The notes beneath the pieces are model-generated. The model was not told the origin of the DNA and ran no database searches. It saw nothing but the letters and a program-made list of their open reading frames with translations. Positions 7,086 through 26,848 of a stretch of DNA of 35,554 nt are shown here, piece after piece (the first letter of the stretch is position 1; the number at the start of each line of letters is the position of its first letter). The stretch is taken from IMG/VR virus record IMGVR_UViG_3300033417_000034, positions 1 to 35,554 of that record. One strand, written 5' to 3'. Source of the stretch: a virus. Its lineage: Duplodnaviria > Caudoviricetes. Made by a program: the position numbers and the translations under genes.

Positions 7086-7946
7086 ATGTTCACGAATCTA
7101 CTGCCGAGCGAGGTCATCGATTGCGTCGCTGCTATCGATCCCGACGCTTATACCGCTGCCGGGGTGTCGAGCGGTTATGCCGACATGTCCGATTACGAGT
7201 CCTTGCTTGCCGTCGGCCTGGTCGGCACCATCGTCTCCACCGGCAAGTACGATCTCAAGCTTCAGTCCAACACGGCGGCGTCCGGCGGCTCGGATATCGT
7301 CGGCAAGGCGATTACCCAGCTTACCGAAGCGTCACCCGATGACAGCGACAAGCAAGCGCTGATCAATCTCCGGCGTTCGGAACTGACGGAAGGCCATCGC
7401 TACGTCAAGATGGTGCGGACGCTGACCACGGCCGGCGCCGACTCGGCATCGTTGCTGCTGGGCTTCAAGGGCGTCCTTGTCGCCAACATGCTGCCCTCGG
7501 AAGTCGTCGGCCTCGTTGGGACTGTGGACCCGGATGCTTACGCGCCGGGCGCGCAGTTGAGCGATGCGATCGACATGTCAAAATGGCATTGCGCCATGGG
7601 CGTGTTGATGATCGGCGATCTCGGGACCGATGGAAGCGTGGTCATGAAGTGGACGCAGGCCACGACCGCCGGTGGCATCTACAAGGATGTATCCGGGGCG
7701 ACCACGGCGACATTCGCCCAGGCGAACTCGCCCGCCGAGTCCAACCAGCAGGTTAAGCTGGATCTTCGGGCCGATGATCTCGACGCCGCCAACGGCTACC
7801 GTTTCGTCAAGCTGTCGGTGACGATTGCCGATTCGTCGTCGCCGGAGAATGCGACTTCGGACGTTGGAGCCGTGGCGTTCGGCGTGTTTCCGAAGATCGG
7901 CGTCGGTTCCGCTCACAATCTGGCATCGGTCGCGGAGGTGGTGTGA
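7086..7946 (+). CDS. Putative capsid decoration/cement protein with two tandem ~140-aa domains
   Basis: Follows the capsid gene, strong AAAGGAG RBS. Internal duplication NLLPSEV..IDPDAY..DMS / NMLPSEV..VDPDAY..DMS and RYVK / RFVK. Confidence 0.6.
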   Translation: MFTNLLPSEVIDCVAAIDPDAYTAAGVSSGYADMSDYESLLAVGLVGTIVSTGKYDLKLQSNTAASGGSDIVGKAITQLTEASPDDSDKQALINLRRSELTEGHRYVKMVRTLTTAGADSASLLLGFKGVLVANMLPSEVVGLVGTVDPDAYAPGAQLSDAIDMSKWHCAMGVLMIGDLGTDGSVVMKWTQATTAGGIYKDVSGATTATFAQANSPAESNQQVKLDLRADDLDAANGYRFVKLSVTIADSSSPENATSDVGAVAFGVFPKIGVGSAHNLASVAEVV

Positions 7947-8374
7947 TGAAAGTCATGTTCGCCGAGGACACGGAGATTCGCGATCATCTCGGCCGCGTCG
8001 AACAGTCCTTCCGGGCCGGGGAGGTGGTGGAGCTATCCACCGCCTCCGCCCGGCGCTGGATCAGGCGCAACAGGGCGACCGAGTTCGTTGGTGCCCCGAA
8101 GATCGTTCTCAAGGCCCCGCCAGCCCCTCCTACAAAGGGGGGCCATGGCGCGTCCCCCGACTCTGGGAAGGGCAAACCGCCGTCTGCATGGCCTCCGGCC
8201 CCAGCCTCAGTGACAGAGACGTTGAGTACGTCCGACGCGCCCGAGACGAAGGAAGATGCCGAGTCATCGTCGTCAACCGGACCTTCGAGCGAGCCAAGTG
8301 GGCCGACGCCCTCTACGGGGCCGACGCCACATGGTGGCGGGAGGCGCAGAACGCCCCCGGGTTCAGGGGGCTAA
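7946..8374 (+). CDS. Small hypothetical protein with Ser/Pro/Thr/Gly-rich tail overlapping the next gene
   Basis: TGATG coupling with GGAGG RBS. Globular N-terminus (FRAGEVVEL..ARRWIRR..A) resembles small post-capsid proteins. Confidence 0.6.
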   Translation: MKVMFAEDTEIRDHLGRVEQSFRAGEVVELSTASARRWIRRNRATEFVGAPKIVLKAPPAPPTKGGHGASPDSGKGKPPSAWPPAPASVTETLSTSDAPETKEDAESSSSTGPSSEPSGPTPSTGPTPHGGGRRRTPPGSGG

Positions 8375-8760
8375 AGGTCTGCCTGGAGGCAATCGAATTC
8401 CGCGATGTTCACGTCCTGAAGTACCATCATGATGGGACCAACACCGGGCTGAGCTTCGATCCCGAGTACCTATGCACGGGGTCCAACTCAGGCTACCAGG
8501 GCGTGAACCTCGCGGTGCTTCTAGGGGCCAGTCGCATTATCCTGCTCGGCTACGATATGAAGTTCGGGCCGAACGGAGAAAAGCACTGGCACGAGGATCA
8601 TGCCGGCCGGAATCCGGGTGAGGTCCAGCTGCAGGAATGGCGGGCGAAGTTCGCGACCATGGTTCCCGATCTTGCGAAGGCTGGCGTTGAGGTCATAAAC
8701 TGTAGCAGGGACACGGCCTTGGACATGTTTCCTAAGTTAAAGCTGGAAGAGGCTTTGTGA
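8146..8760 (+). CDS. Maf/DUF115-like (sialyltransferase-like fold) glycosyltransferase domain; start uncertain (frameshift fusion or ATG 8188)
   Basis: WRVPRLWEGQTAVCMASGPSL, IVVN, YGADATWW, NSGYQGVNLAVLLGASRIILLGYDM, HWH, VINCS. Confidence 0.7.
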   Translation, partial: WRVPRLWEGQTAVCMASGPSLSDRDVEYVRRARDEGRCRVIVVNRTFERAKWADALYGADATWWREAQNAPGFRGLKVCLEAIEFRDVHVLKYHHDGTNTGLSFDPEYLCTGSNSGYQGVNLAVLLGASRIILLGYDMKFGPNGEKHWHEDHAGRNPGEVQLQEWRAKFATMVPDLAKAGVEVINCSRDTALDMFPKLKLEEAL

Positions 8761-9041
8761 TGGCGATGACAATAAATGCGGCCAAGTTGTCACGTGAATA
8801 TGTGACGATCACCGTGACTGGCCTTCGAGCGCTGAACTTCCGCCATTGGCTAGCAGCCAAGATATTCGTGCTCGGGGCATGGGCTGCATCGACAGGACTA
8901 GAAATCGCAATGGATGATACGGACGTTCCAAGGCGGCCGGGTGAAGGCTACCACCCGCGCGCCGATGGCCGTCCACCGTCAAGCCCGCCGCCCAACCCGC
9001 CGAATATGGGAAGCGGTGGGCGGAAGCCATCGAATAGTTGA
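8760..9041 (+). CDS. Small hypothetical protein with Pro-rich C-terminus
   Basis: Overlapping stop/start codons on both sides and fills the gap exactly. Confidence 0.6.
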   Translation: MAMTINAAKLSREYVTITVTGLRALNFRHWLAAKIFVLGAWAASTGLEIAMDDTDVPRRPGEGYHPRADGRPPSSPPPNPPNMGSGGRKPSNS

Positions 9042-9790
9042 TGTTTTCCTTCGTCCACATCCGCGATCCCCGCAACACGGGCGACATGGCGGCCTGTCCC
9101 GCCAACTACTTCGACTTCGGCCAGCATGAGGTGTTGGACTATAGCGACCGGCCAGCGGGCTCCGTGGTGGTCTACGGGGGCGGCGCGATGGTGAACTGGC
9201 TTCATGGCCGGGCCGGCCTGCCCGACGTGCCCAAGGTCATCTGGGGGGCGGGGTCGAGTCGTCACGGCGAAACAGAGCCTTGGACTGATCCGGAAGGCGT
9301 GGATATTATGGGGGTGCGGGACTGGTCTCCGGAACGCGAGGCGGCTGGGCTCTATGCGCCGTGTTCTTCCTGCATGTCGCCGTTACTCGATGATCCGCCG
9401 CCCCCGACGCGCGAGGCGGTGCTATTCTTGAATGCCAACCCGTCGATCCGGTCGCGGTATCCGGTTGGCGTTTCTGGTTTGCCGACGATGATGAACGATC
9501 AGCCGATGGCGGCAATTGTCGAGTTTCTGGCGAGCGCCGAGACAATTGTTACCGACAGTTATCACGGATGCTTCTGGGCCATCCTGCTCGGTCGCCGCGT
9601 AGTGGCTGTGCCGTACAGCAGCAAGTTCTACGGGTTTCGCCATCCGCCAGCGATGAGCGTCAGGCGCGGAGGCGACTGGGAGCGATTGGCGCGGGGCGCT
9701 ACGGTGTACCAGGGTGCGCTTCGGGAGTGCCGAGCGGCGACCCTGGTGTTTCATGAGCGTGTAGTGAATGTGATCAGGGATAACGCATGA
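9041..9790 (+). CDS. Polysaccharide pyruvyltransferase-like protein
   Basis: NTGD, YGGGA, IWGAG, GVRD, IVTDSYHG..WAILLGR motifs. Confidence 0.8.
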   Translation: MFSFVHIRDPRNTGDMAACPANYFDFGQHEVLDYSDRPAGSVVVYGGGAMVNWLHGRAGLPDVPKVIWGAGSSRHGETEPWTDPEGVDIMGVRDWSPEREAAGLYAPCSSCMSPLLDDPPPPTREAVLFLNANPSIRSRYPVGVSGLPTMMNDQPMAAIVEFLASAETIVTDSYHGCFWAILLGRRVVAVPYSSKFYGFRHPPAMSVRRGGDWERLARGATVYQGALRECRAATLVFHERVVNVIRDNA

Positions 9791-10689
9791 GCGGTAATGC
9801 GATTTTCTACGTGTATGAGCACCATCGGCCAGATACCGGAGAGTGTTTCTATGTCGGCAAAGGCCACGGGAACCGCTCGGCAGTGTTCCCCAGGAATAGG
9901 CTGCACGAGAAAATTCTGAACAAATTGACCGGGCTTGGCCGGGAAGCCGAAGTGAGAATTGCGAAGGGCGGGTTGTCGGAGGCGGAGGCATTCGCACTGG
10001 AAGTGGAACTGATTGCGAAGTATGGGCGGAAGGACCTGGGCACCGGGTCTCTTGCTAATCTGACAGATGGCGGCGAGGGGCCGAGTGGCATGAGCGAGGA
10101 AGCGCGTGCCAAGGTCGGCGCTGCTCAGAAGGGTAAGGCCATCTCGCTTGAGCACCGCGCGAAGATCAGTGCCGCTCATAAGGGTAAGACCCTCTTGCCC
10201 GAGCATTGCGCCAAGATGAGCACCGCCATGAAGGGCCGGACCATATCGCCTGAGCACCGCGCTAAATTGAGCGTTGCGCAGAAGGGCAAGATTCACAGTG
10301 AGGAAACACGCGCTAAGATGAGCGCTGCCACTAAAGCATGGCACGTCGCTAATCCGGGCACGACCCACAGTGAACTGGCCCGCGCCAAAATGAGTGCTGC
10401 CGGGATGGGCAACCAACATCGGCTCGGCAAGTCCTTTTCGCCGGAAACGCGTGCAAAAATCAGTGCGGCACTAAAGGGCCGTGTTCTCTCGCCGGAAACG
10501 CGGGCCAAGATGAGCGCCGCCCTGGAGGGTAATCAAAGAACGCTCGGGTACCGTCATACGGACGAGGCGCGGGCCAAAATCAGCGCCGTCTTGGAGGGCA
10601 AGACTCCCTCGCCGGAAACTTGCGCCAAAATCAGTGCAACCCTGAAGGCGCGTCATGCCGCCACGACAGAGCAAGTTTCACCGACATAA
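9787..10689 (+). CDS. Free-standing GIY-YIG homing endonuclease with a NUMOD3 repeat array
   Basis: FYVYEH..FYVGKG..R, EAFALE..LI, LANLTDGGEG, then about 11 repeats of (H/L)SxExRAK(I/M)SAA. Confidence 0.9.
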   Translation: MSGNAIFYVYEHHRPDTGECFYVGKGHGNRSAVFPRNRLHEKILNKLTGLGREAEVRIAKGGLSEAEAFALEVELIAKYGRKDLGTGSLANLTDGGEGPSGMSEEARAKVGAAQKGKAISLEHRAKISAAHKGKTLLPEHCAKMSTAMKGRTISPEHRAKLSVAQKGKIHSEETRAKMSAATKAWHVANPGTTHSELARAKMSAAGMGNQHRLGKSFSPETRAKISAALKGRVLSPETRAKMSAALEGNQRTLGYRHTDEARAKISAVLEGKTPSPETCAKISATLKARHAATTEQVSPT

Positions 10690-11423
10690 TGGCACAGCGC
10701 ATACCCGGCCTCTCCGGTCTCGTTCGCCTGCGCAATGAAGAGGTCTGGTGTGTATTGGCGCTGGACTCCTTCGTCGGCTGGTGTGACGAATTGATTGTGG
10801 TGACCAACTGTTGTTCCGACCGTACACCGCAGATCGTCGCGAAGTTTGCAAGCGAACATCCCGACATGGTGCGGGTGTATCGCTACGACTACGAAATTTA
10901 TCCGATGGGACCGGGTCATGACGCGATCAGCGCGCATGATCCAAGATCGAGCGCGGCTTACTACAATTTCACGCAGGACAAAGCAACATTCTCGCATGCC
11001 GTGAAGCTCGACGGCGACATGATCATGATGGACTGGCCCGGCTTGGCAATCCGCAAGCTGATGAACGAAGGCCGCGACCGCATCCGCTTTGAGGGTCGGG
11101 ATATTGTGGGCGACGATCTGATGCATGTCGGCTGCCATCCGCTGTGCCGGACAAACGGTGTTTACAGGGTCGGTCCCGGCGTAGGCTACAGGCAGGGACC
11201 ACTGACGCAGAATTTGCAGGGCGTGCCCGATGCAGACGACGCCTTCGATCACCGGCCGGCATTCCTGCATTTCAAATGGGCGAGGAAGTCGTTGGAGTCG
11301 GCGACTTGCCAATGGCCGTCAGACTGGCAGTCGATCCCGCATTTCCAGCGCATCTACCAGCGCCGGATTCCGGTGGCTAGGTACGAGGGCGAGTATCCAT
11401 CGTCGGTGCGGGCGCTGTTGTGA
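10689..11423 (+). CDS. GT2-like glycosyltransferase
   Basis: RLRNEE, DELIVV..CSDRT, KLDGD (DxD), LHFKW. TAATG coupling. Confidence 0.8.
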   Translation: MAQRIPGLSGLVRLRNEEVWCVLALDSFVGWCDELIVVTNCCSDRTPQIVAKFASEHPDMVRVYRYDYEIYPMGPGHDAISAHDPRSSAAYYNFTQDKATFSHAVKLDGDMIMMDWPGLAIRKLMNEGRDRIRFEGRDIVGDDLMHVGCHPLCRTNGVYRVGPGVGYRQGPLTQNLQGVPDADDAFDHRPAFLHFKWARKSLESATCQWPSDWQSIPHFQRIYQRRIPVARYEGEYPSSVRALL

Positions 11424-12313
11424 CGCCTGGCGTGTTCCTGCTCTGGTCGGCAGTGCGGCAACACTGGGGCGCGATGGAGGCGATGATCGCCGAGCGGTTC
11501 GAGATCGACCGGCGCATAGACCTGGCCTTTGCGAGTCATGAGACGTTCTGGTCGTTCAACTGCGACGTCTACATGCTCAAATCGATTGCGATGCATCCTG
11601 ATGCTCGGGAGCGGAGTTACATCAACCCCAACCGTGACCGGCTCCGACTACTGGAGCCGCATGGGTTTCGCCTACGAGCCATTATCGCACGCCCGCGCAA
11701 CGGAGCGCTCGGCCAAGCGTGCGATGCGATGAAGGTGGCTCTGCGGGAGGCTTACCCGGCGCGGGTAGTCGGAACGAAGATGTACCTCAACGTTCATGCG
11801 GCGGACGGCGAGGCTGAGGCGGCTTATCTGCTCGATCTGCTCCAACCGGTGAGTCTTGCGCACGTCCACCGGCGGCCGTTCCCATTGCGCCCGGCCTATT
11901 ATGACAGATTACACAGGCTGCGGGCCTGGTGCGCCGAGAACGGTATCGACCGGCGGCAAGCGTGCGTGATCTCGGGCGGGGTGTTCGAAGCCTGCGGGCT
12001 CCGCGAGTCGAACGATATAGATATCATCCTCGATAGTGCCGCGCGCCGGAAGTTCGGCGCCGCTGGCATCAAAGACATTGTGCCGGGCATCGACCTCGCG
12101 GCGGCGGGCTATCACCGCACTGTCCGCCCGGTCGCGCTGACCGACGACCAGATCATTGGCGATCCGCGTTACCACTTTACCATGCTGGGCGTGCGCTTCG
12201 CGGCGCTGCCTCTTGTGGCCGAGACGAAGCTGAACGGCGGACGCAGTAAGGACAGGTCGGACGTGGCGCTGCTCAACGGGTCGCATGCATCTTTTTTGAT
12301 GGTGCCGCTGTGA
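11420..12313 (+). CDS. Two-domain protein: NDK-like N-terminus and nucleotidyltransferase-like C-terminus
   Basis: NVHAADGEAEA resembles the NDK phospho-His motif. CVISGGVFEACGLRESNDIDII is a polbeta-type NTase signature, with C-terminal RSKDRSD. Confidence 0.55.
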   Translation: MTPGVFLLWSAVRQHWGAMEAMIAERFEIDRRIDLAFASHETFWSFNCDVYMLKSIAMHPDARERSYINPNRDRLRLLEPHGFRLRAIIARPRNGALGQACDAMKVALREAYPARVVGTKMYLNVHAADGEAEAAYLLDLLQPVSLAHVHRRPFPLRPAYYDRLHRLRAWCAENGIDRRQACVISGGVFEACGLRESNDIDIILDSAARRKFGAAGIKDIVPGIDLAAAGYHRTVRPVALTDDQIIGDPRYHFTMLGVRFAALPLVAETKLNGGRSKDRSDVALLNGSHASFLMVPL

Positions 12314-12843
12314 ACTGGGACGGGCGAGCCCTGATCTCGCATTCCTACGTCGAGCAGAATCGGCTGATGCACAGGGCCGCGGACTTCGGCGCGGAATCGT
12401 TTCGATGGGCGCAGAAAGCGGCCAAGCTCATCGCTGAGCATGGCTGCAAGGATGCGCTCGACTACGGTTGCGGCAAGGGCACGTTCGCGGTGGCCTTGGC
12501 GAAGTTTACCGATATCTCGGTAGCCGAGTACGACCCCGCGATCCAGGGTAAGGACGGGTTGCCAGTGGCGGCTGATTTCGTGATCTGCAATGACGTGCTG
12601 GAGCATGTCGAGCCGGATTTTGTCGATAATGTGCTGGATCATCTCGCCTCGCTGGTACGCCGGGTTGGATTGATCGGGATCGCTACGAAGTACGCGCTTA
12701 GCCACCGGTTGCCGGACGGGCGCAATCCGCACCTGTCCGTGCATGGCGGCGAGTGGTGGCAAGACAAACTGGAGTCGCGATTCGCGATCAAGCCATTTGC
12801 CACACGCCCGAAGGAGTATGCCTGCGTGGTGACCTGTAGGTGA
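12310..12843 (+). CDS. Class I SAM-dependent methyltransferase
   Basis: LDYGCGKG, EYDP, CNDVLEHVEP. Confidence 0.88.
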   Translation: MNWDGRALISHSYVEQNRLMHRAADFGAESFRWAQKAAKLIAEHGCKDALDYGCGKGTFAVALAKFTDISVAEYDPAIQGKDGLPVAADFVICNDVLEHVEPDFVDNVLDHLASLVRRVGLIGIATKYALSHRLPDGRNPHLSVHGGEWWQDKLESRFAIKPFATRPKEYACVVTCR

Positions 12844-13361
12844 AGCTGGCTCAGGTCTGCGGCGCGCCGGGCGTCGGTAAAACGACACTGCTCGAAGCGC
12901 TCGGCTCCCGCGTGTTGCAAGGCGGGGCGCTGCGGTCACTGGCAGAGTCGAACAAGGCGGCCGCCGATACTGGGTGGCTCGATGATCTAGACGGCTCGCC
13001 TCAGTGGCGGGAGGTGGTTAAGATATCGCTGCGCCGTGCGACCGCCATTCAGTCGATCTGCTCGATCGGCCTTGCGGTCGATGCACACATGCCGCTGCAA
13101 CGGGCGATTGGTGCGCCTTGCGGTTATATCGAGCGAGCCCCTTTGCCGGATGTTTGCGTGTTTTGCTTGGCCCCGGTCGAGGTCATAGAGCAACGGCTAG
13201 CAGAGCGACCCCACAAGCCGGGGCGGGTTTATGACACGCTGGCTGCGATTGACGACGTGAATCGCGCGCTTGACGTGATGACGCGCCGCAGTGCGCCGGT
13301 GCTCGTATTGGACATGACGCAGGCGGTTGAGTTTAACGCAACGACGGTGCTGGCATGCTGA
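12840..13361 (+). CDS. P-loop small-molecule/nucleotide kinase-like protein
   Basis: GAPGVGKTT Walker A and lid motif APVEVIEQRLAER. Confidence 0.7.
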   Translation: MKLAQVCGAPGVGKTTLLEALGSRVLQGGALRSLAESNKAAADTGWLDDLDGSPQWREVVKISLRRATAIQSICSIGLAVDAHMPLQRAIGAPCGYIERAPLPDVCVFCLAPVEVIEQRLAERPHKPGRVYDTLAAIDDVNRALDVMTRRSAPVLVLDMTQAVEFNATTVLAC

Positions 13362-14062
13362 CGGTGGTGACGTTTTTGTGGCATGAGAAAGACGGCCGCC
13401 ACAACCACCTGTTCGTTTATTCAGCGGATTACGTCAACCGGCTGCGTTCGATGTTGGAGCGGCACCTGAAGCAGCCGCATGAACTGGTCTGCGTGACGGA
13501 TATGCCGGACGGGATCGACCCGCGCGTGCGTGTCGTGCCTCAGCCGCACGCGGATGTGGTGCTGCGCGATGACGTTCCAGGCTGGTTTCGACGCCTCGTG
13601 ATCTTTCACCCGGAAGCGGGCGCGTGGCTGGGGAACCGGATATTGCTGATGGATCTCGACTGCGTGATCTTGCGCGACCTGGACCCGCTGCTAGAAGGCG
13701 CCGGAGACTTCAAGTCCTGGGAGCCGCGCCTGTACCACCAGGCGGGCAGGCCATACAGCCGCTACAACATGTCGTTCGTGCTGCTCGATGCCGGCGCCCG
13801 GCCGCAAGTATGGGAGCAATTCGATCTGGACGCGTCGCCCGGGCAGTTCGCTGCGGTGGGCCTTGCCGTAGACGATCAATCCTGGCTGACACTTGTGCTC
13901 GGCAATGGTGAATCCGTGTGGCCGTGGGGTGGCGACATAGTGTCCGTTCGTGCCGTGCCTGATCCGGGACGGGCGCGCGTCGTGTTTTTCAACGGTCCGC
14001 GCTCGCCCGCCATGCCGCAGATGCAGAAAGAATATCCGTTCATCGGGGAGTACTGGCATTGA
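13355..14062 (+). CDS. GT-A fold glycosyltransferase (GT8-like)
   Basis: YVNRLRSM, CVTD, MDLDCVI (DxD), YNMS, DQSW, VFFNGPRSP. Confidence 0.82.
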   Translation: MLTVVTFLWHEKDGRHNHLFVYSADYVNRLRSMLERHLKQPHELVCVTDMPDGIDPRVRVVPQPHADVVLRDDVPGWFRRLVIFHPEAGAWLGNRILLMDLDCVILRDLDPLLEGAGDFKSWEPRLYHQAGRPYSRYNMSFVLLDAGARPQVWEQFDLDASPGQFAAVGLAVDDQSWLTLVLGNGESVWPWGGDIVSVRAVPDPGRARVVFFNGPRSPAMPQMQKEYPFIGEYWH

Positions 14063-14631
14063 CCAACACGCTTCCGGACGGACGGAAATCCGGTCAATGG
14101 GAACTCGACGAGCTTGTAAGCGAATTCCGGCAGGCGGGCGTCAAGCGCTATCTGGAAATCGGCGCACGGAGCGGCGTCTTTTTTGCTCACGTCATGGCCG
14201 GACTTGGGCCTGGATCGTTTGGGGTCGCCGTTGATATGCCGGGCGCGGCATGGGGGCAGCTAGACTCGGCGGAAAAGCTGAAAAGCGTCGTCGAGAAATT
14301 CGGTGGGCACGTTATATTTGGCGACAGTCATTCGGCCAGTGTCCGTGCCGCTATTTTGACGCTGACACCCTTCGACGCCTGTGTCATCGACGCCGATCAT
14401 AGATACGAGGCGGTGCGGTTGGATTGGGAATTCTACCGGCTGTTGGCGCCGATCATTGCGTTTCACGATATCGACTGGGAGGCCGGAACAAAGCCAGCCT
14501 ATCGGTATCAGGTTGAAGTGCCCCGGCTTTGGAATGAAATTCGGGACCGCTATAAAACACGAGAGATCGTTGGGCCTAAGCGCGGGTTTGGGTTCGGTCT
14601 GGTCTTTCAATTGCAGCACAAATGTCCCTAG
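14059..14631 (+). CDS. Class I SAM methyltransferase (Methyltransf_24-like)
   Basis: YLEIGARSG, GDS, IDADHRYEAVRLD, IAFHD. Confidence 0.85.
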   Translation: MTNTLPDGRKSGQWELDELVSEFRQAGVKRYLEIGARSGVFFAHVMAGLGPGSFGVAVDMPGAAWGQLDSAEKLKSVVEKFGGHVIFGDSHSASVRAAILTLTPFDACVIDADHRYEAVRLDWEFYRLLAPIIAFHDIDWEAGTKPAYRYQVEVPRLWNEIRDRYKTREIVGPKRGFGFGLVFQLQHKCP

Positions 14632-15470
14632 ACATCGTTCTCTACCGAGCCGACACGCCATGGGCGGCGCCGGTTGAAGATGCCATGCTGGCCGGGCTGC
14701 GTGCCCACGGGTTGGCGCCCGAGGAACGGCGCAAGGGCGACTGGCGGGTTTCCGATCTAGCTATTGTCTGGAACCACCGCGACACGGAACTGCACGCGAT
14801 GCAGCGCGAGGCCGGTGCACACTACCTTGTCATGGAGCGCGGCTATATCGGCGATATCGCGATGCGCCGCGAGTGGACTTCACTAGGCTTCGACGGGCTC
14901 AATGGTCGCGCCAAGTTCCCGGATGCGCGGGACGGCGGTGGACGCTGGCAAAAGCACTTCGGCCACATGATGAAGCCGTGGCGCAATGGGCGCAAAGACG
15001 GCGATTATGCGTTGCTGATGGGACAAGTTCGCGGCGATGCCAGCTTGGCTGGCGTGAACATGGACGACTTCTATCTGACGGCGGTGCTGAACTGTTGCTT
15101 CGATTGGAAACTGCCGGTGATGTTCCGGCCGCACCCGCGAGATGCAGATCAGCCTTTGCCGCATGGTGCCGTGCCACTCGGCGGAACGCTCGAAGATGCG
15201 CTGAAGAGGGCGGCTTTGGCCGTGACGTTCAACAGTGGGGCCGGGGTTGATTCGGTTCTGGCGGGGGTGCCGACCATCGCGCGGGATCGCGGCTCGATGG
15301 TTTGGGGTATCGCTGCATACGATTGGGATGAATGTGCGCGGCCGGATCGCATGGCGTGGGCAAGAAAGCTGGCGTGGTGCCAGTACACGACCGACGAAAT
15401 ATCAGGCGGGTTTGCCTGGGAGTGCCTGCGCGAGGTTCGCCGTATGCAGAACATGGCGGCGGTTTCGTAA
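14622..15470 (+). CDS. KpsS/KpsC-like (Capsule_synth) GT-B transferase
   Basis: MERGY, GQVRGDASL, FRPHP, VTFNSGAGVDSVLAGVP. Confidence 0.72.
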   Translation: MSLDIVLYRADTPWAAPVEDAMLAGLRAHGLAPEERRKGDWRVSDLAIVWNHRDTELHAMQREAGAHYLVMERGYIGDIAMRREWTSLGFDGLNGRAKFPDARDGGGRWQKHFGHMMKPWRNGRKDGDYALLMGQVRGDASLAGVNMDDFYLTAVLNCCFDWKLPVMFRPHPRDADQPLPHGAVPLGGTLEDALKRAALAVTFNSGAGVDSVLAGVPTIARDRGSMVWGIAAYDWDECARPDRMAWARKLAWCQYTTDEISGGFAWECLREVRRMQNMAAVS

Positions 15471-17945
15471 ATGCCCGCGCTGCAGAAATCCATCGAGCAC
15501 GTCACGCTGACGCTCTCGGCGGGGACGAATCCGGCGGCGGTCAATCTGACCAAGGGCCAGGACCCGGCCGCCTGCACGCATTCCTTTTCCATCCGTGAGG
15601 CGGGCGCAGCGGTCGCCGCGGTCAACGGCAATATCCTGCCGGAAGTCTGGTTCGACGACAACGCGGGCACGGCGCGGGTCAATGCCCAGCTTCTGAACGG
15701 CGACGACGTCCAGGTTGAGATATTTGTCGTCGAATGGGACTTGACCAAGGTCAACGTCCAGCAGGGCACCTATACCATCACCTCCGGCCAGGTGAGCGGC
15801 ACGGCGGCGATCTCCGCCGTCGATCAGGCCAAGGCATTCATCGTCCATTCCGAACGGATGGCCACGACCAGCGGCTTCTGGTTCGACCGGGCCTGCATCA
15901 GCGCCAGGTTCACGTCCGATACGGAAATCACGTTCGGACGATTCTTGTCCTCGACCATCCAGACGACGACCGGGCGGTTCTACGTGGTCGAGTGCATCGG
16001 CACGGAGTTCTCGGTTCAAGCCGTCGATCTGGTCAACGACGCCATCTCGCAGGGCTCCACTGCGCACAATCAGACGATCAGCTCCGTCGATATGGCCAAG
16101 ACGTTCATCGTCGGCGGCTACGCGGCGGGCAACAACGACGACGATCCGGTCGACGGCGCCATGTGGTGGGCGCTGACCAGTTCGACGAATCTGCAATTCC
16201 AGCGGGTCGGCGGCGGAGCGCCGGGCGTACACTTCATGAATACCAGGATGTTCGTCGTCACGTGCGCCAACGACGAGTGGACCGTGCAGCGGGCGCAGCC
16301 GACGATCGGCAGCGGCGAGACGGCCGACGACACGACGATCACGGCCATCGACCAGGCGCGCTCGGTGATCAATCCAGGCTCGAACATGAGCCTGACCATG
16401 GGCCACGCGAATACGACGACGGGCGGCGACGCCCCCGGCCTGCTTCTCGGCTTCACCTTCGCCGCCGATACGACGGTGCGGGCTTCCCGGCGCATCACCG
16501 GATCGCTGGCGAGCGCCTATGCCTTCGAGGTTGTCCAGTTCGCTGAGCCGGAAGCACCCGGCGTAAGCATAGTCGTTCCGCTGGCCTCCACCGAGGCTGG
16601 CGCCCTGGCACCCGGCATTGCGGCGGGCGCGAAAATAACAATTCCTCTGGCCGGGACCAAAGCCGAGGCACTCGCGCCGTCTATCGCAACAGGCGCCAGT
16701 ACTACCGTGCCACTAGCCGCGACGGAAACGTCTGCGCTTGCTCCGGCGGTGGCGGCAGGCGCCGCTGTTGCCGTGCCGTTGGCGCAAACCGAAGCATCGG
16801 CCCTAGCGCCTGCTGTAGCGGCTGGTTCCGCTGTCAATATTGCGGTGCCGCTCGCAGCGACGGTGACAAGTGCGCTAGCGCCAGCGGTTGAAATGATTGC
16901 CGCCGGCGCCATCATTGAGTTCTTCGATGGCGGCACAATCGAGTTTTTCGATGGCGGCGCGTTCGAGTTCTTCGATGCGGGCCCCCTTGTCACTGTCCCT
17001 ATAGCAAGAACGGAGACATCGGCTTTAGCGCCAGCAGTGGCGGCTGGCGTGAACGTGGCGGCGCCACTGGCCGGGACGGTGGTGGATGCGCTGGCGCCAA
17101 TGGTTGCGGCCGGGGCCAGTATTGCAGTTGCCTTGGCCGAAACCGTGGCACAGGCTCTTGCGCCTGCCATCGTGGTAGGGGCCAACGTTGCAGTCCCGTT
17201 GGCGCAAACCGCCACGAGTGCGCTGGCGCCCACGGTCGAAGCCGGCGCCGGGGCGGTTATCGCTGTGCCGCTTGCGGAGACGGAAACAAGCGCACTGGCG
17301 CCAAGTGTATCGGCTGGCGCCAGCATTGTCGTCCCGCTGGCCGCTACCGAGGCGGACGCTCTTGTACCAGCGGTGGTGGTAGGCGCTCGTATCGCCGTAC
17401 CACTGGGGGAAACCGAGGCTGGTGCCTTGGCACCTGCGGTTGCCGCCGGGGCAGCCGTCACGGTGCCTCTTGCCGCTACACAGGCGGATGCGCTTGCCCC
17501 GAATATCGTGGCGGGCTCCGGCATTGCTGTGCCTTTGGCTGCAACGGTGGCGGCTGCATTTGCACCGTCAGTCGCGGCGGGTGTCCGCGTGGTGGCTCCG
17601 CTGGCCGAAACGGTGGCGGCCGCTTTCGCGCCTACGGTCGAGATACTTGCCGGTGCGAACATTGCCGTTCCGCTGGCGGAAACAGAAACGGCTTCTATCG
17701 CGCCGTCTGTCGCGGCCGGGTCCAGGATTGTCATTCCGCTCGCGGAAACGGAAACCATTGCGTTCGCGCCTACCTTACTCGCGATAACAATGGGCACGGC
17801 GGCTGAAAGCGGTCGGCTCTCTGCCGCGGTCATGGCCGGTGCATCATCTGGCGCGGTCACGGGTGGCCGGAAGGCGAATGCAAGCCTGGGCGGCAGGACG
17901 ACAGGCGCGGTGGAAAGCGGGCGACTTAGCGGAGAAGCGGCATGA
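15471..17945 (+). CDS. Putative virion fibre protein: repeated beta-rich N-terminal domains plus 17 x ~22-aa repeats
   Basis: N-terminal repeats AISAVDQAKAFIV / TISSVDMAKTFIV / TITAIDQARSVI. C-terminal half is an xVxVPLAxTxxxALAPxVxAGA array. Confidence 0.7.
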   Translation: MPALQKSIEHVTLTLSAGTNPAAVNLTKGQDPAACTHSFSIREAGAAVAAVNGNILPEVWFDDNAGTARVNAQLLNGDDVQVEIFVVEWDLTKVNVQQGTYTITSGQVSGTAAISAVDQAKAFIVHSERMATTSGFWFDRACISARFTSDTEITFGRFLSSTIQTTTGRFYVVECIGTEFSVQAVDLVNDAISQGSTAHNQTISSVDMAKTFIVGGYAAGNNDDDPVDGAMWWALTSSTNLQFQRVGGGAPGVHFMNTRMFVVTCANDEWTVQRAQPTIGSGETADDTTITAIDQARSVINPGSNMSLTMGHANTTTGGDAPGLLLGFTFAADTTVRASRRITGSLASAYAFEVVQFAEPEAPGVSIVVPLASTEAGALAPGIAAGAKITIPLAGTKAEALAPSIATGASTTVPLAATETSALAPAVAAGAAVAVPLAQTEASALAPAVAAGSAVNIAVPLAATVTSALAPAVEMIAAGAIIEFFDGGTIEFFDGGAFEFFDAGPLVTVPIARTETSALAPAVAAGVNVAAPLAGTVVDALAPMVAAGASIAVALAETVAQALAPAIVVGANVAVPLAQTATSALAPTVEAGAGAVIAVPLAETETSALAPSVSAGASIVVPLAATEADALVPAVVVGARIAVPLGETEAGALAPAVAAGAAVTVPLAATQADALAPNIVAGSGIAVPLAATVAAAFAPSVAAGVRVVAPLAETVAAAFAPTVEILAGANIAVPLAETETASIAPSVAAGSRIVIPLAETETIAFAPTLLAITMGTAAESGRLSAAVMAGASSGAVTGGRKANASLGGRTTGAVESGRLSGEAA
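16563..17790 (+). repeat. Degenerate ~66-bp coding tandem repeat (17 units) interrupted by 3x EFFD(G/A)G
   Basis: Counted from the translation. Synonymous divergence between units shows protein-level conservation. Confidence 0.9.
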
Positions 17946-18250
17946 CCACTGAGTTACGCGATATCGGCGACGGCGAGACGTTGAAGGCGAACTTCACGAA
18001 CAACGACAGTCCTGCCGTCGCGGCCAATCCGACCACGGTAACACTGAAAATCAGGCAGCCGAACGGCACGGTGGTCACGCGCAGTACAGCGGATAGCCCG
18101 GCCACGATAACCAACGATGTTACGGGCACCTTCGAGTCCGACTTCACCTATGCCCAGGAAGGCCGTCACTTCATTGAGTGGGTTGGAACCGGCACGGTTG
18201 TCGCGGCGGTATCCGGGGAACGCTACGTCTTGAGGTCAAACGTCGCATGA
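17942..18250 (+). CDS. Small Ig-like virion protein
   Basis: ATGA coupling on both sides. NPTTVTLKIRQPNG..GTF...GRHFIEWVGTG beta-sandwich pattern. Confidence 0.65.
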   Translation: MTTELRDIGDGETLKANFTNNDSPAVAANPTTVTLKIRQPNGTVVTRSTADSPATITNDVTGTFESDFTYAQEGRHFIEWVGTGTVVAAVSGERYVLRSNVA

Positions 18251-18836: not shown

Positions 18837-19166
18837 ATGCGTATCGGCACGCTGGATCATTCAATCGTTATCCAATCCGCCACGACGACGCAGGATGCGT
18901 CCGGACAGCCGATCCAAAGTTGGTTGACGTTTGCCTCTGTTTTGGCGGCACGCCGGGATGTTCGCGGTTCCGAGCGGTTCACATCCGAGCAAACGCTCGC
19001 CACGCGCACGGCGGTTTACCGCATGCGTTGGCTTTCCGGGATCAATGAAAAAATGCGCGTCGTTGATGATGGCGTCACTTACGGGGTCATGGGTATCGCT
19101 GACAACTATCGTCAGGGATGGCTGGAATTGTCGGTTGAAGCTCTCAACCCGGCGGATATCACGTAA
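18837..19166 (+). CDS. Head closure protein (SPP1 gp16-like)
   Basis: MRIGTLDHSI.IQ, QDASGQPI..W, MRW..GI...MRV. Confidence 0.88.
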   Translation: MRIGTLDHSIVIQSATTTQDASGQPIQSWLTFASVLAARRDVRGSERFTSEQTLATRTAVYRMRWLSGINEKMRVVDDGVTYGVMGIADNYRQGWLELSVEALNPADIT

Positions 19167-19573
19167 TGACGGTCGAGGCTGAATTACGCGCCCGGCTTGT
19201 GGCGAATGGCGCGGTCAATGGGCTGGTCGGAACGCGTATCTATCCGTTGATGGCGCCGCAGAACCCGACGAAACCATACGTGACGTTTCAGCGGATATCC
19301 GGCCCGCGTTTGCAGGCGCTGGGCGGTGCGGCCGGTTTCGGCATGGCCCGCATTCAATACGATTCGTGGGCGGATACTTACACGACTGCTCAGGCCCTGG
19401 CCGCTGCGATCCGTAATTCGTTCAACGGCTTTATCGGCAAGTTGTCGGATGGAAATTCGCCGGCATCGCTGCGCACCGTCGTTGTCCGGCTCGACAACGA
19501 GCGCGATCTGTTCGAGGAAGATACCGAACTGTTCCGCGTGACCCAGGATTATCGACTTACCCATTCGGAGTGA
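19166..19573 (+). CDS. Tail terminator (DUF3168-like)
   Basis: LVGTRIYP..APQ...PYVTFQRISG, RIQYDSWA. Confidence 0.85.
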   Translation: MTVEAELRARLVANGAVNGLVGTRIYPLMAPQNPTKPYVTFQRISGPRLQALGGAAGFGMARIQYDSWADTYTTAQALAAAIRNSFNGFIGKLSDGNSPASLRTVVVRLDNERDLFEEDTELFRVTQDYRLTHSE

Positions 19574-20007: not shown

Positions 20008-20424
20008 ATGAGTGTCTATGTAGCCGATGGCACAACCATTGCCCGCAGCAATGAGGACTCGCCGCTCACCTACACCAATTTTCCGCAAGTCGTCAGCATC
20101 GGGACGGTTGGTCAGGATCGCGGCCTGATCGACATCACGAACCTATCCAGCACCGCCCGAGAGTACAAGAAAGCGATCAAGGACGGCCAAGAAATCGAGG
20201 TCGTCATGCAGTACGATCCGGACGACACCACGCAGGCGGCCCTCAAGACGGACAAAGATTCCGAGGATGCCCGCAGCTACCGCGTCACCTTGTCGGACAG
20301 TCCGGCCCAGACCATCACCTTCAATGCGCTGGTGACCAACTGGTCTATCACGGATATCGCGATCGACAACGTGCTCGGGCTGCGCTGCGTGTTGAAGCCC
20401 AGTGGCGACCTCGTTTTTGCATGA
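20008..20424 (+). CDS. Major tail tube protein
   Basis: IDITNLSSTAREY....KDG, TFNALV, LKPSG. GGAGG RBS and expected position. Confidence 0.88.
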   Translation: MSVYVADGTTIARSNEDSPLTYTNFPQVVSIGTVGQDRGLIDITNLSSTAREYKKAIKDGQEIEVVMQYDPDDTTQAALKTDKDSEDARSYRVTLSDSPAQTITFNALVTNWSITDIAIDNVLGLRCVLKPSGDLVFA

Positions 20425-20529
20425 GTTAACTGAAACGATGCGTGCCAGACGAGTCGCAAGGGCCGCGTCGATCAGCGCTTAGAGCAACAGCATCGCCGCG
20501 AGGCGCTTCATTCTAAAGAAAGATCAATC

Positions 20530-20982: not shown

Positions 20983-21302
20983 CCGAACTTGAAGACACGA
21001 TCTCCGAGCGCGAACTGAACGAATGGATGATCTACACGACCATTGAGCCGTTCGGAGAGGAAGCCGCTTTCTACCGTGCCGGTATCGTCGCCTCTACCAT
21101 CGCCAACGTTCATCGTGACCAGAAGAAGCGCAGAGAACCATTCGCGCCAACCGACTTCATGCCCAGGCCGGTCAGCGAGCAACGCGGTGGTTTGAAGGAA
21201 GTCCCGGAAGGGCTCGATCCCAGGCGGGTCAAGGCAGAGTTGTTCGCCGCGTTCGGAAATCGGATCAAGCGGAAGGGCAAGAGCGATGGTGGGCAAGGTT
21301 GA
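20530..21302 (+). CDS. Tail assembly chaperone gpGT-like product via -1 frameshift at A AAA AAC (20913-20919)
   Basis: Canonical slippery heptamer. The -1 frame reads LRSDGRRRFCFRLALALGRTVAELE...ELNEWMIY..IEPFG and continues into ORF 21027-21302. Confidence 0.88.
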
Positions 21303-21711
21303 ATTCTCGATCAAAGGCGCCAGGGAAATGGAGGTGCTGTTGAAGAAGCTTGGACCTGTACTTGCCTCGAAGGTCGGGGATCAGGCGTTGCGCGCTGGCG
21401 CCAAGGTGATCGTCGCAGAAGCTAAGAGGCTGGTCCCTGTGCGAACCGGCAAGCTTAGGGACAGCATCGCCATCAAGGTTGAGAGCAAACGCAAGTTCGG
21501 CGTTCCAGCGCGTCTTGTGCTGATTGGATTCGAGCGGCCGACCAGCTTCAGGGCTCACTTTGTGGAGTTCGGCACATCGCATTCCGCCGCCAAGCCGTTC
21601 ATGCGCCCGGCGATGGATGCCAAGGCTGGCGAGGCGCTGGAAGAAATGGGCCGGGTGCTGGCGCGGGGGCTCGCGCGGGAAGCCGCAAAACTGGCTAAGC
21701 CGGGCCGCTAA
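21286..21711 (+). CDS. HK97 gp10-like tail completion protein
   Basis: ALRAGAK.I..EAK..VPVRTGKLRDSI, HFVEFGT, AKPFMRPA. Confidence 0.9.
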   Translation: MVGKVEFSIKGAREMEVLLKKLGPVLASKVGDQALRAGAKVIVAEAKRLVPVRTGKLRDSIAIKVESKRKFGVPARLVLIGFERPTSFRAHFVEFGTSHSAAKPFMRPAMDAKAGEALEEMGRVLARGLAREAAKLAKPGR

Positions 21712-21748
21712 AGATTGTGTCATGAATTTCAATAGAGGCCGTTAGCTT

Positions 21749-23968: not shown

Positions 23969-23971
23969 AAC

Positions 23972-24331
23972 ATGGCCGCGTGGCCGGTAAGCTTGCCGCA
24001 ATCGCCGCTCGTGAACGGTTACAGCGAACAGATGCGCAAGATGGGTCTGCGTTCATCGATGGACGCAGGCCCGGCAAAACAGCGCCGCCGCTTTACATCC
24101 GCAGTCATCCCGATTGGCGTGCGCATGGCGCTCACCAACGCTCAGGTTGAGACGCTGGTTACATTCTGGGATACGACGACAAGCGGTGGTGTCCTGTCGT
24201 TTACCTGGCTACACCCGCGCACCGGATCAGCCGTCACGATGCGATTCATCGCCGATCAGCCGCCCGATATCCAGCCGCTCGATTCGGAGGATTTGTACTC
24301 CGTCAGCTTCCCGCTGGAAATTCTGCCTTAA
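23972..24331 (+). CDS. Distal tail protein (lambda gpM-like)
   Basis: WP.SLPQ, RSSMDAGPAKQRRRFT, F.W.HPRTG, directly after the tape measure gene. Confidence 0.8.
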   Translation: MAAWPVSLPQSPLVNGYSEQMRKMGLRSSMDAGPAKQRRRFTSAVIPIGVRMALTNAQVETLVTFWDTTTSGGVLSFTWLHPRTGSAVTMRFIADQPPDIQPLDSEDLYSVSFPLEILP

Positions 24332-24352
24332 CTCTGAAGAAGGACTTACACC

Positions 24353-24811
24353 ATGGCCGTGACCATCACGTTCTATAACCATACCCGAAAGCTGTTTGCC
24401 AACGGCGAAGTCAACCTCGCCAACCTTAAGTTGATGTTGCTTGATCTCGGCCTAACATCGCCAGCGGCGGTTTTCGATGCCACGGACACTACCATCGACG
24501 CATTAAGTGCGAATGAAGTAGACGGCGGCGGCTGGACGACCGGCGGCGAGGCGCTTGCCAGCGCCGCTGTCACGGTGGTCAACACCAATGAAGCCAAGCT
24601 TGACGCCGCGGATATCTCTGTCACGGCGACTGGCGTAGCCATCGGCCCGGCGACGCATGGCGTGATCTACGACGATGACCAGAGTTCGCCGGCAGTCAAG
24701 AACTTGCTTTTCTTCGTCGACTTCGACGGTGCCAAGACGGCGGATGTAGGTGCGGACTTCGACGTTACCTTCGACGCCAATGGCATCCATCTGTGGAGCG
24801 CGCCGGCGTAA
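24353..24811 (+). CDS. Small beta-rich virion structural protein
   Basis: GAAGGA RBS. NEV.GGGWT.GG..L, LDAAD, VIYDD, DFDG pattern seen in phage tail-region proteins. Confidence 0.7.
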   Translation: MAVTITFYNHTRKLFANGEVNLANLKLMLLDLGLTSPAAVFDATDTTIDALSANEVDGGGWTTGGEALASAAVTVVNTNEAKLDAADISVTATGVAIGPATHGVIYDDDQSSPAVKNLLFFVDFDGAKTADVGADFDVTFDANGIHLWSAPA

Positions 24812-24826
24812 GAGAGGATTTGAATC

Positions 24827-26848
24827 GTGCCACGGTTCAATCAACCGCCGGCGGCGGAGGCGGAACAGATTCTCCGCCGCTATATCATGCCGCTGGCGGA
24901 CCCGGCGGCGGCGGATGCAGACGCGGACCTGTGGGCGGACCTGGGCCGGATCATCCCATCCTCGATTAACGTTAAGGAGGAACACGGCGCGGTCGGCGAC
25001 GGTGTGGCCGACGACACTGCGGCGCTGATCAGCCTGCGGACGGCGCTGCTGGCAGCGCCGGAGAAGCACCACACGGTCATCTTCCCGCCGGGCCATTACA
25101 TCTACGACAACAACCGCTGGCTGCTCGGCGTCGGCTCGGTCACCATCCTGATGGACGGGGCGCAGCTGCAAAACGTCAGCAACGACGCCTGGGATGCGAA
25201 CAAGCGGTTTTTGAACACCTACGATTTCTGGGACGACAGCGGCGATGTGCCGGTTTCAGCAACGCGAACGCTGCACAATGGATATATCATCGGAGATTCG
25301 GCGATTGGCGATCTCACAATCCCGATGGATACCAGCGGCGAGGAAGATAATTTCTCTATCGGGAACCGGGTTTTGCTCGCCGGGTTCAACCAGCAGGACG
25401 GCGGCTATCCGCCTAATCAGAGGTTTTACCAATGGAACGTGGTCGCCGGCATCGGCGATGGCACGCTGACCTTCGTCTATCCCCTGATTTATGACTTCCG
25501 GTCGTCGGACTGGAAGGATTTTTCAATTTCGATATTCAGCACCACGCTGGAATACGGCAAGGCGCGGGTGATGAACCTGGACCGCGCCAATTGGACCTAT
25601 CCGCGCCTGATCGAGTTCGTCGGCGGCGAGATATTGCAAAATCCGAATTCGACGGCGGACGCCATCATCATCGCAGCGGATACGCTGGTTTTTCGCCAGG
25701 TCAAGTCGAATATCATCACGACCCCGGCCTTTAACCGGAATTTCCTGGCTGACGAATGCGTGTTCCATCATCCGTCCGGCCCGGATGTTAATTCATTCAC
25801 GCCCGACAAATATTGCGACCTGATCGACGTGCGCCGAAGCAAGCTGTTGGGGCCATGCACCGAATCGCCCGGCACGGGGCTGTTGCGGTTCTCCGAATGC
25901 GACCTTCTGAACTTCACCATCAAGGCCGGTCCGAAGCGGCTGATCATGGAGCGGAATCACATTAAGCCGCCGGCCGGGACGCAGTTCGGCGTCGTCCAGT
26001 CCAAGGAAGCATGGCCGGTCGAACTGCTCATCTTCGAGGATAACGTCATCAGCCACGATGGCGCCCTGCTGCATGTTCTCAATACGGATATCGAGCACAC
26101 CTTCACGGTCGGTTCCGTTGGGGCCAACAATGAGATTGAGGTTGCCGACAGCGGGACGATCATTTCTACCACGATTGCCAAGATCACCATCGGCTCGCAC
26201 CTCTACGCCACCGATTTCAGCGACAGCGGGATTGTCTCTAACATATCCTATAGCGATGAATCTCCAAGTGTGTGGCGCATCTCAGGCACGTGGAAGGGCA
26301 CGCCGAGCGGCACCTGGGCGTTCTACGATCTGCTCCGCTACGAGGAACGGGGCACGGTTTTCTATGGCGGCAAGCGGTTCATCGACCGGCAGGCCCGGCC
26401 GCAGCAGATGGCGAGCTGCCAGGAACGCGGGCCGGTCATCTTGAAGATCGGCGACGTGGACCAGGCGCTCGACTGGACCGCCAAGTTCCACCGCCGCGAA
26501 GTGGCCATGGGAATCGTCAAGAAGATTTCCGTCTCCATCCAGAAAGAGTACACGGGATCGACGGAAACGGCCTTTCTCGGGATCGCGCTTTGGAAAACAA
26601 GCGGGCGAACGGACTACGTTAAGATGGATTTGCTCGCCGTCGGATACGCGGAGACGCGGCTGGACGGAACCTACAGCAGCCCGGCGGCGGCGACATTGGT
26701 ACAGCTTCCGGTGAACACCCCGATCAAGGATTTGACGATCAGCTACACGCACACCGGCGCCAGCAACGGCGACGTGCTGGCCTACGCGGACCCGACCGAG
26801 CGGCCGAAGTTCGCCGTGCAATTCGAGATGGAACCGTTGGAGGGGTGA
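24827..26848 (+). CDS. Tailspike-like protein with pectate-lyase-3-type beta-helix N-cap
   Basis: INVKEEHGAVGDGVADDTAAL....VIFPPGHY. GAGGA RBS before GTG. Confidence 0.75.
   Translation: MPRFNQPPAAEAEQILRRYIMPLADPAAADADADLWADLGRIIPSSINVKEEHGAVGDGVADDTAALISLRTALLAAPEKHHTVIFPPGHYIYDNNRWLLGVGSVTILMDGAQLQNVSNDAWDANKRFLNTYDFWDDSGDVPVSATRTLHNGYIIGDSAIGDLTIPMDTSGEEDNFSIGNRVLLAGFNQQDGGYPPNQRFYQWNVVAGIGDGTLTFVYPLIYDFRSSDWKDFSISIFSTTLEYGKARVMNLDRANWTYPRLIEFVGGEILQNPNSTADAIIIAADTLVFRQVKSNIITTPAFNRNFLADECVFHHPSGPDVNSFTPDKYCDLIDVRRSKLLGPCTESPGTGLLRFSECDLLNFTIKAGPKRLIMERNHIKPPAGTQFGVVQSKEAWPVELLIFEDNVISHDGALLHVLNTDIEHTFTVGSVGANNEIEVADSGTIISTTIAKITIGSHLYATDFSDSGIVSNISYSDESPSVWRISGTWKGTPSGTWAFYDLLRYEERGTVFYGGKRFIDRQARPQQMASCQERGPVILKIGDVDQALDWTAKFHRREVAMGIVKKISVSIQKEYTGSTETAFLGIALWKTSGRTDYVKMDLLAVGYAETRLDGTYSSPAAATLVQLPVNTPIKDLTISYTHTGASNGDVLAYADPTERPKFAVQFEMEPLEG

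Follow-up and report, generated by a model that had tools for sequence, protein, structure and literature searches.

Why should one short Ser-Pro motif recur in virion proteins of several families that flank a block of sugar-transferase genes? The window, by which we mean the whole stretch of Caudoviricetes virus DNA analysed here (35,554 nucleotides), carries a cassette of phage-encoded glycosyltransferases (8146-15470) between its head and neck genes, within the virion gene region. The original prediction had read a recurrent [DNST]SPA motif in the small virion proteins as an acceptor tag for serine O-glycosylation, or phosphorylation, by this cassette, and that glycosylation-tag interpretation is partly supported by our findings.

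Ser-Pro motifs in the small virion proteins

All 12 sites originally listed have their serine codon and flanking residues exactly where they had been placed. Ten of them lie in five small proteins, each encoded on the plus strand. A two-domain post-capsid protein, presumed to decorate the head (7086..7946; SP at 7332, 7728 and 7839), matches PHROG 28483 over two stretches. It is joined by a pre-adaptor protein of 102 aa (17942..18250; SPA at 18008 and 18095), by the tail terminator (19166..19573; PF11367), whose SPA at 19457 is within an insertion of about seven residues, by the tail tube protein (20008..20424; SP at 20059 and 20299) and by a virion-type protein of 152 aa (24353..24811; PHROG 644 and 24741; SPA at 24458 and 24686). 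The labels 'decoration' and 'Ig-like' for the first two are those of the original prediction; the profile matches are to PHROG 28483 and 17896, in which function is unassigned. The tube has a lambda gpV-like fold, and both of its sites fall in inter-strand loops of a low-confidence model (pLDDT 57). Sequence searches of the PDB with the tube, post-capsid and 13355 (glycosyltransferase, see below) families gave nothing useful, a search of genome contigs with the tube alignment gave no match, and a metagenome search returned the window's own contig alone.

Together the five proteins (813 aa) contain 10 SP and 7 SPA, the counts given originally. Shuffling each protein yields 2.05 and 0.25, in keeping with the earlier rough estimate of fewer than one SPA, and neither observed value was reached in any of 5000 shuffles. 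The objection that these proteins were chosen post hoc is largely answered by a set of 10 small virion-type ORFs (1487 aa), selected by size and class and reaching beyond the five: in a formal k-mer test SPA is the top tripeptide, with 7 occurrences for 0.54 expected (Poisson 1.5e-6; 0.012 after multiplication by 8000), and TP occurs twice for 5.7 expected. Across the full set of 19 virion-type proteins no enrichment of SP is seen (23 vs 21.05), though SPA is enriched at 9 vs 2.78, a value that 14 of 5000 shuffles attain. The 21 non-virion ORFs hold 22 SP (12.85 expected, p 0.013) and 3 SPA (1.44 expected); five of those 22 SP fall in NUMOD3 endonuclease repeats.

The tape measure protein is indeed free of SP, as had been noted, but this zero is uninformative because its composition (S 7.2%, P 1.2%) predicts about 0.6, and we rejected it as a control. 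The two tailspike sites on the list lose their standing because that protein's three SP in 673 aa are at chance level (about 2.4 expected from composition). A DNA-repeat origin of the sites was rejected because, in agreement with the earlier observation, their serine codons mix the TCN and AGY classes. As a candidate sequon, [DNST]SPA is too narrow, and the sites conform roughly to [GATS][ADGN]-S-P-[AE].

Inserted loops and their association with the cassette

Are these motifs additions to the proteins that bear them? Alignment with homologues reveals the SP sites as insertions in several proteins. In the terminator, SP is present in 14 of 14 long loops vs 3 of 106 short ones. In the 152-aa protein, one SPA segment is 15 aa long, against 10 aa in 81/104 homologues, and the other 14 aa, against 9-11. 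SP-bearing loops are inserted in the adaptor of relatives too, and six non-homologous protein families gain such loops. At sites 7332 and 7839 of the post-capsid protein, some homologues have a shorter segment or no SP; at site 7728, SP is present in 5/5 homologue rows, and the pre-adaptor protein has SP in 3/6 group representatives. Of 121 tube homologues, 110 and 112 retain the serine at the two sites, with threonine once at each, figures that are inflated because the homologue search words contain the motifs. At the first tube site, SP is found in 16/16 aligned groups with a KpsC-like gene, down to 16% identity, vs 1/17 cassette-free groups; at the second, aligned homologues use TCN codons in 8 cases and AGY codons in 10. 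Of the convergent acquisition originally proposed, the insertion of the loops is borne out, and their independent origin is conjectural: an AU test does not reject a one-time gain of the terminator insert (p 0.2), and the adaptor tree, an underpowered control, offers one supported independent pair for tag versus cassette.

From a broader perspective, we compared 144 groups of relatives (147 in total, less three GenBank records), 61 of which were too incomplete to classify and five of which, having other cassettes, were held separate; 'cassette-free' here denotes no cassette seen between capsid and tail genes, over at most 20 kb rather than the whole genome. In surface proteins the observed/expected ratio of SPA is 6.2 in the 27 groups with a KpsC-like gene vs 1.4 in 45 cassette-free groups; the corresponding ratios are 1.3 and 0.9 in control proteins, and 0.66 and 0.87 for TP. 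Co-occurrence of motif and cassette is likewise seen with [DNST]SPA, which 12/20 KpsC-like groups carry vs 3/43 cassette-free ones (p 1e-5), and with groups found via motif-free anchors (5/11 vs 3/43, p 0.006); dropping the alanine in the latter comparison leaves no significant difference (6/11 vs 16/43, p 0.32). A broadened tag pattern separates the groups further (17/21 vs 1/43), but because it was defined after the data had been seen, we used the prior motif. Where both core enzymes occur without three other profiled transferases, 9 of 11 groups carry at least two tags. Nine pairs on unsupported branches split 8:1 for the post-hoc tag (161/200 pairings); for SP density the usual split is weaker, at 7:2 or 6:3.

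The association has exceptions. Two groups have the KpsC-like gene without a tag (L051, L090), and three are tagged with no cassette in the stretch examined (L041, L144, L060). In D3-family phages tube SP does not follow from the presence of a Maf-like gene: PAJU2 and Psp6 lack it, and HK022 has SP in tube and terminator and no Maf-like match in the 7.5 kb examined. The 16 tail and neck ORFs counted in Caulobacter phage CcrBL9, which encodes enzymes of both types, show no excess of SP. The major capsid protein (40 SP in 17 cassette groups vs 37 in 45 cassette-free) was left out of the tag set because many of its SP sites are lineage motifs that also occur in cassette-free groups.

Core enzymes of the cassette

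Which genes of the cassette might act on the loops? Two transferase-like families, Maf-like and KpsC-like, are the sole genes common to minimal tagged cassettes; their profiles are unrelated to each other, and both enzymes resemble CMP-ulosonate transferases. The KpsC/WbbB-like retaining beta-Kdo-transferase-like enzyme (14622..15470, plus strand) has profile matches to 5fa0 and 6mgd, and its QxxxD and HP motifs align with those of WbbB. Judged from its model (pLDDT 93.8; Foldseek ranks 1-14 all KpsC/WbbB, E 5.5e-9), it has the KpsC/WbbB fold. Within the family Q135 (19/19), D139 (16/19) and H171-P172 (19/19) are conserved, and the accessible text on KpsC describes QxxxD and HP as catalytic motifs (PMC10148158). 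Fold and motifs are shared with KpsC/KpsS (GT107), WbbB (GT99) and KrkA, as far as the available sections describe them (PMC10148158; PMC9587256), whereas identity to known beta-Kdo transferases is 13-15%, TM is about 0.5-0.6, and these enzymes are known to act on glycolipid or O-antigen sugars rather than on phage glycoproteins. The window holds no capsule export genes.

The Maf/DUF115/GT42-like domain (8146..8760, plus strand; PHROG 4603, E 1.6e-44) is the candidate initiating serine O-transferase. Its PF01973 match is below cut-off and its CstII and Maf matches are weak (E 0.075-0.49); structure atlas models of PF01973 clusters match it with TM 0.82-0.84, and on these models it has a DUF115/GT42-like catalytic domain. 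Its conserved N-terminus has no start codon nearby. A small post-capsid ORF (7943..8374, plus strand), which overlaps the Maf-like frame with its 3' half, has two candidate sites for a -1 slip, at 8125 (C CCT CCT) and 8134 (A AAG GGG). Changes in the overlap are 13 synonymous to 5 in the Maf-like frame. The enzyme probably arises through a -1 frameshift that joins it to the small post-capsid domain. On the 3' side of the slip site in the window the RNA shows no special structure (z 0.08), and 2 of 5 tested reach z -1.7 or lower.

Other cassette genes, all on the plus strand, comprise a polysaccharide pyruvyl-transferase-like variable member (9041..9790; PF04230, E 1e-4, below cut-off), an unannotated protein that recurs in cassettes and looks GT-A-like by eye only, with no match in family and profile searches (10689..11423), two SAM methyltransferases (12310..12843, PF13489, E 9e-9; 14059..14631, PF13578, E 1e-5) and a glycosyltransferase of the P1 PmgQ family (13355..14062; PHROG 1962, E 2e-10). 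A 173-aa P-loop nucleotide-kinase-like protein (12840..13361; PHROG 761; TIGR02173 (d)CMP kinase, E 7e-5, below cut-off) belongs to a family found in the window's own group only and possibly recycles CMP.

A candidate acceptor tag, its rivals and its relatives

How might the loops be used? They are likely spots of sugar attachment, because relatives with the cassette usually have them and cassette-free relatives mostly lack them. The data directly support that the loops are inserted, that their serine is conserved, that they co-occur with the cassette and that the two core enzymes have the folds described; from this we infer the attachment itself: we think it rather probable that the SP loops are acceptor tags on whose serine a phage enzyme places Kdo or a related ulosonic acid. 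We picture this in the cytoplasm of an infected cell of a probably Gram-negative host, with host CMP-Kdo as donor. The Maf-like enzyme (8146-8760) would move the first sugar onto an exposed x-x-S-P-A/E turn, its extension or capping would fall to the KpsC-like enzyme (14622-15470), and the variable transferases and methyltransferases would elaborate the glycan, resulting in a non-essential negative coat over head, neck and tail that might alter surface interactions.

Alternatively, the loops may be ordinary beta-turns inherited in the cassette-bearing lineage, with the cassette acting elsewhere, on host glycans or another virion protein. Consistently, there is one supported independent pair only, the terminator insert is compatible with a single gain, HK022 has SP, many cassette-free groups have it at background rate, and homologous enzymes exist without tags in D3-family and Caulobacter phages. 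Mere inheritance is nevertheless unlikely in view of the six non-homologous families that gained SP-bearing loops, the SP in every long terminator loop, the two separate insertions of the 152-aa protein that are both SPA, the near absence of Ser-to-Thr replacement and the lack of a comparable shift in TP and control proteins. To a use of the loops for docking of an accessory virion protein, or for modification by a host enzyme or a cassette methyltransferase, we assign a smaller chance still: a strictly kept short motif would fit any ligand, and three tagged groups have no cassette in the stretch examined, but two transferase-like families are all that minimal tagged cassettes share, and the 824-aa repeat protein family is restricted to few groups.

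Ser-Pro is also a classic kinase motif in eukaryotes, and the cassette includes a kinase-like gene, so that the loops might be proline-directed phosphorylation sites of the 173-aa P-loop protein. This variant of the original prediction found little support and appears very improbable, for the best matches of that protein are nucleotide kinases, its family is confined to the window's own group whereas tags span many groups, and no cassette gene matches a protein-kinase family.

The preferred reading, serine-linked ulosonic acid on SP loops, has partial precedents. Mycobacteriophage glycans reportedly are neutral and hexose-type and occupy capsid or tube subunit extensions. As here, phage glycosyltransferases and methyltransferases are proposed, in the accessible parts of the mycobacteriophage reports (Freeman et al. 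2023; PMC12582341, PMC13313380, PMC12894461), to act on the phage's own structural proteins; unlike there, the host here is probably Gram-negative, the core enzymes are CMP-ulosonate-transferase-like and the putative acceptor is a short internal Ser-Pro insertion that recurs in many proteins. Maf flagellin glycosyltransferases, whose predicted fold is alike, attach Kdo or Neu5Ac directly to Ser/Thr in E. coli according to the available text, so that ulosonic acids, Kdo among them, become O-linked to a protein that self-assembles; the terms 'sequon' and 'consensus' are absent from that text (10.1101/2020.06.03.131540). The likeness is one of working only: 8146-8760 spans some 200 aa, lies among phage head genes in one operon, and has neither the full multidomain Maf architecture (666 aa in 5mu5) nor a flagellin locus around it.

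For tailed bacterial phages, the openly readable literature cites virion glycosylation mainly for mycobacteriophages, and a search of it, with subscription papers outside its scope, found no published sequon or Kdo-type virion coat. A readable tag would allow glycosylated phages and their sites to be predicted from sequence. More tentatively, a portable SP tag of 3-7 residues, glycosylated in the cytoplasm from host CMP-Kdo by a minimal pair of enzymes, may be widespread among Gram-negative siphophages; the pair would be a compact Maf-like O-Kdo transferase, guided to the particle by its frameshift-fused domain, and a KpsC-like extender. If this two-enzyme CMP-Kdo reading is true, phage glycosylation would have a defined sequon, and tag and enzyme together would make a compact tool: a very small acceptor tag and a soluble enzyme with which proteins could be glycosylated at chosen sites. 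A testable role would also emerge for the unexplained 'sialyltransferase' genes of D3 and P1. The D3 stretch, and those proteins of P1, PAJU2 and phiNP that were tested, gave no KpsC-like match; D3 orf7 shows the same post-capsid overlap as the window, and in P1 the Maf-like profile is matched by pmgO and pmgP, and pmgQ falls in the 13355 family, genes that the accessible annotation lists as putative morphogenetic only and as non-essential in P1 (PMC10695390).

Ser-Pro motifs in small virion proteins

The excess of Ser-Pro words in small virion proteins is real and more than chance would produce. All 12 SP sites named in the original prediction were located correctly, and the five small proteins concerned (post-capsid, 7086-7946; pre-adaptor, 17942-18250; terminator, 19166-19573; tube, 20008-20424; 152-aa protein, 24353-24811) hold 10 SP and 7 SPA as claimed, where 2.05 and 0.25 are expected. 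When all 10 small virion-type ORFs were considered, SPA was the top tripeptide (7 versus 0.54 expected; 0.012 once corrected for 8000 words), and the TP control gave 2 versus 5.7 expected. Over all 19 virion-type proteins, SP stands at chance level (23 versus 21 expected), and the signal is thus limited to the small proteins of head, neck and tube. Neither the tailspike sites nor the supposed contrast with an SP-free tape measure, both offered as support, carries any weight.

Do these sites represent acquired loops? Comparison with homologues places the terminator and 152-aa protein sites within insertions, as had been proposed. Of 120 terminator homologues, 14 have a loop segment of at least 21 residues, and every one of these carries SP there; of the 106 with shorter segments, 3 do. 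On a tree built from 118 rows the long loops require 7 changes, and a single origin of the insert is compatible with the data (AU p 0.2). For the 152-aa protein, 104 homologues were compared: the segment with the first SPA measures 15 residues here and 10 in 81 of them, and the segment with the second measures 14 here and usually 9-11 in the homologues; SP is found at these segments in 2 and 9 of the 104, respectively. The adaptor of this phage has no SP, and the adaptors of relatives carry it in two inserted loops. At the tube sites (20059 and 20299), Ser is conserved in 110 of 121 rows at one and 112 at the other, in an alignment whose word-based search favours such rows; Thr appears in one row per site, and the Ser codons at the second site comprise 8 TCN and 10 AGY. 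A lambda gpV-like tube model of low confidence (pLDDT 57) places both sites between strands.

Association with an enzyme cassette

The window is an entire 35.5-kb contig from an HK97-type siphophage, in which terminase, portal, protease and capsid genes precede a cassette (8146-15470), followed by adaptor, closure, terminator, tube, tape measure and tail tip. Sited between head and neck genes, the cassette comprises about ten enzyme-like genes; inserted within it is a homing endonuclease-like gene with NUMOD3 repeats (9787-10689) that themselves supply 5 SP. The sole match to the cassette in the genome collection, a 9-kb contig bearing the title Propylenella sp., encodes the two core enzymes as well as a tube whose SP loop is the same, and hints that the host may be alphaproteobacterial. 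Elsewhere, the terminase large subunit (385-3207) is interrupted by an intein-like sequence that matches LAGLIDADG and is absent from a homologous 575-aa ORF (locus L015), and the two tail-chaperone ORFs, the second at 21027-21302, are ordered as in a typical G/GT pair. Throughout an 824-aa protein (15471-17945) runs an Ala/Val-rich repeat about 36 residues long, which recurs in the middle of a 409-aa tail protein (26852-28081); it contains no SP in either.

Loci were collected via tube, post-capsid, adaptor, neck and KpsC-like anchors, with genes called by script, and those with a common core protein at 80% or more were merged into 147 groups, 3 GenBank records being excluded. The KpsC-like gene is present in 27 groups, another core transferase only in 6 and other cassettes in 5; in 45 the capsid-to-tail interval contains no cassette, and the remaining 61 are too truncated for classification. 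In surface-type proteins, observed/expected ratios in KpsC-like-gene versus cassette-free groups are 6.2 versus 1.4 for SPA and 1.92 versus 0.89 for SP; for SPA in control proteins they are 1.3 versus 0.9. The motif [DNST]SPA, set before the searches, tracks the cassette as predicted (12 of 20 KpsC-like-gene groups versus 3 of 43 cassette-free groups), also among groups found via motif-free anchors (5 of 11 versus 3 of 43). The same comparison gave no signal for TPA, and [DNST]SP without Ala showed no significant difference in the motif-free-anchor set. The tag context in cassette groups approximates [GATS][ADGN]-S-P-[AE]. A phylogenetic control is weak, with one independent pair on supported branches; 9 pairs on unsupported branches split 8:1 for this post-hoc tag and mostly 7:2 or 6:3 for SP density.

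A possible glycosylation route and its exceptions

How might the cassette act on such loops? The 14622-15470 (+) protein has a predicted fold like that of the KpsC/WbbB retaining beta-Kdo transferases and keeps the QxxxD and HP motifs described for KpsC-type enzymes in PMC10148158. The 8146-8760 (+) domain matches PHROG 4603, and its predicted structure resembles PF01973/DUF115; its direct sequence matches to CstII and Maf are weak. Maf enzymes, whose catalytic domain is DUF115, put Neu5Ac or Kdo directly on flagellin Ser/Thr in E. coli (10.1101/2020.06.03.131540). Two CMP-ulosonate-type enzymes and a CMP-kinase-like neighbour (match below cut-off) outline a coherent putative route: the Maf-like enzyme would start on Ser, the KpsC-like enzyme would extend, and variable decoration would follow. 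We infer the sugar donor, the enzyme order and the identity of the tag-reading enzyme. Minimal tagged cassettes (e.g., L043, L100, L141) contain hardly more than the two genes. Some related cassettes (L019:18207-19484, L099:535-2531, L032:3142-7049) additionally encode a fused cytidylyltransferase-aldolase, or else an epimerase and an aminotransferase, which suggests that they may make their own nucleotide sugar.

The SP loops probably serve as glycosylation tags, a reading favoured by the insertions and by the tracking of the motif with the cassette, but the tag does not accompany the enzymes everywhere. The Maf-like family has 78 cultured-phage records; the tubes of PAJU2 and Psp6 lack SP, the loop SP of D3 is absent from PP9W2, and HK022 has SP with no Maf-like gene in the stretch viewed. 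Behind the tail-fibre genes of the cultured giant Caulobacter phage CcrBL9 (L207:12028-14301) lie a Maf-like gene and then a pair of KpsC-like genes, and despite both enzyme types the 16 tail and neck ORFs counted show no SP excess. Phage P1 (L209:3944-6502) has two genes that match the Maf-like profile, pmgO and pmgP, and one, pmgQ, that matches the transferase family of 13355-14062; these homologues are non-essential according to PMC10695390, and the three genes flank a Ser/Thr phosphatase gene. The tag, if real, therefore belongs to a subfamily.

Alternatively, the loops might be an inherited structural turn, which we regard as unlikely, though it ranks next. Service to another ligand is less probable again, and phosphorylation, which the original prediction had also entertained, is very improbable. 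With respect to glycosylation, modified virions have been described in mycobacteriophages (Freeman et al. 2023, as cited in PMC12582341, PMC13313380 and PMC12894461); the papers searched revealed neither a Ser-Pro sequon nor a virion coat of Kdo type.

A candidate frameshift upstream of the Maf-like domain

Sequence comparison across 7943-8760 points to a probable -1 programmed frameshift that would join the small post-capsid domain and the Maf-like one. The Maf-like frame has no start codon near its conserved N-terminus: where this phage has ATG at 8188, a relative with 94% identity has TGT, and its frame remains open. Within the overlap, silent changes relate to the others as 13 to 5 in the transferase frame and as 3 to 16 in the upstream frame. 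Of 11 overlapped loci, 7 have a slippery heptamer in the correct phase versus 0.48 expected; possible in-frame starts also occur close upstream in L020, L100, L104 and D3. In the related locus L197, a related small domain is fused in frame.
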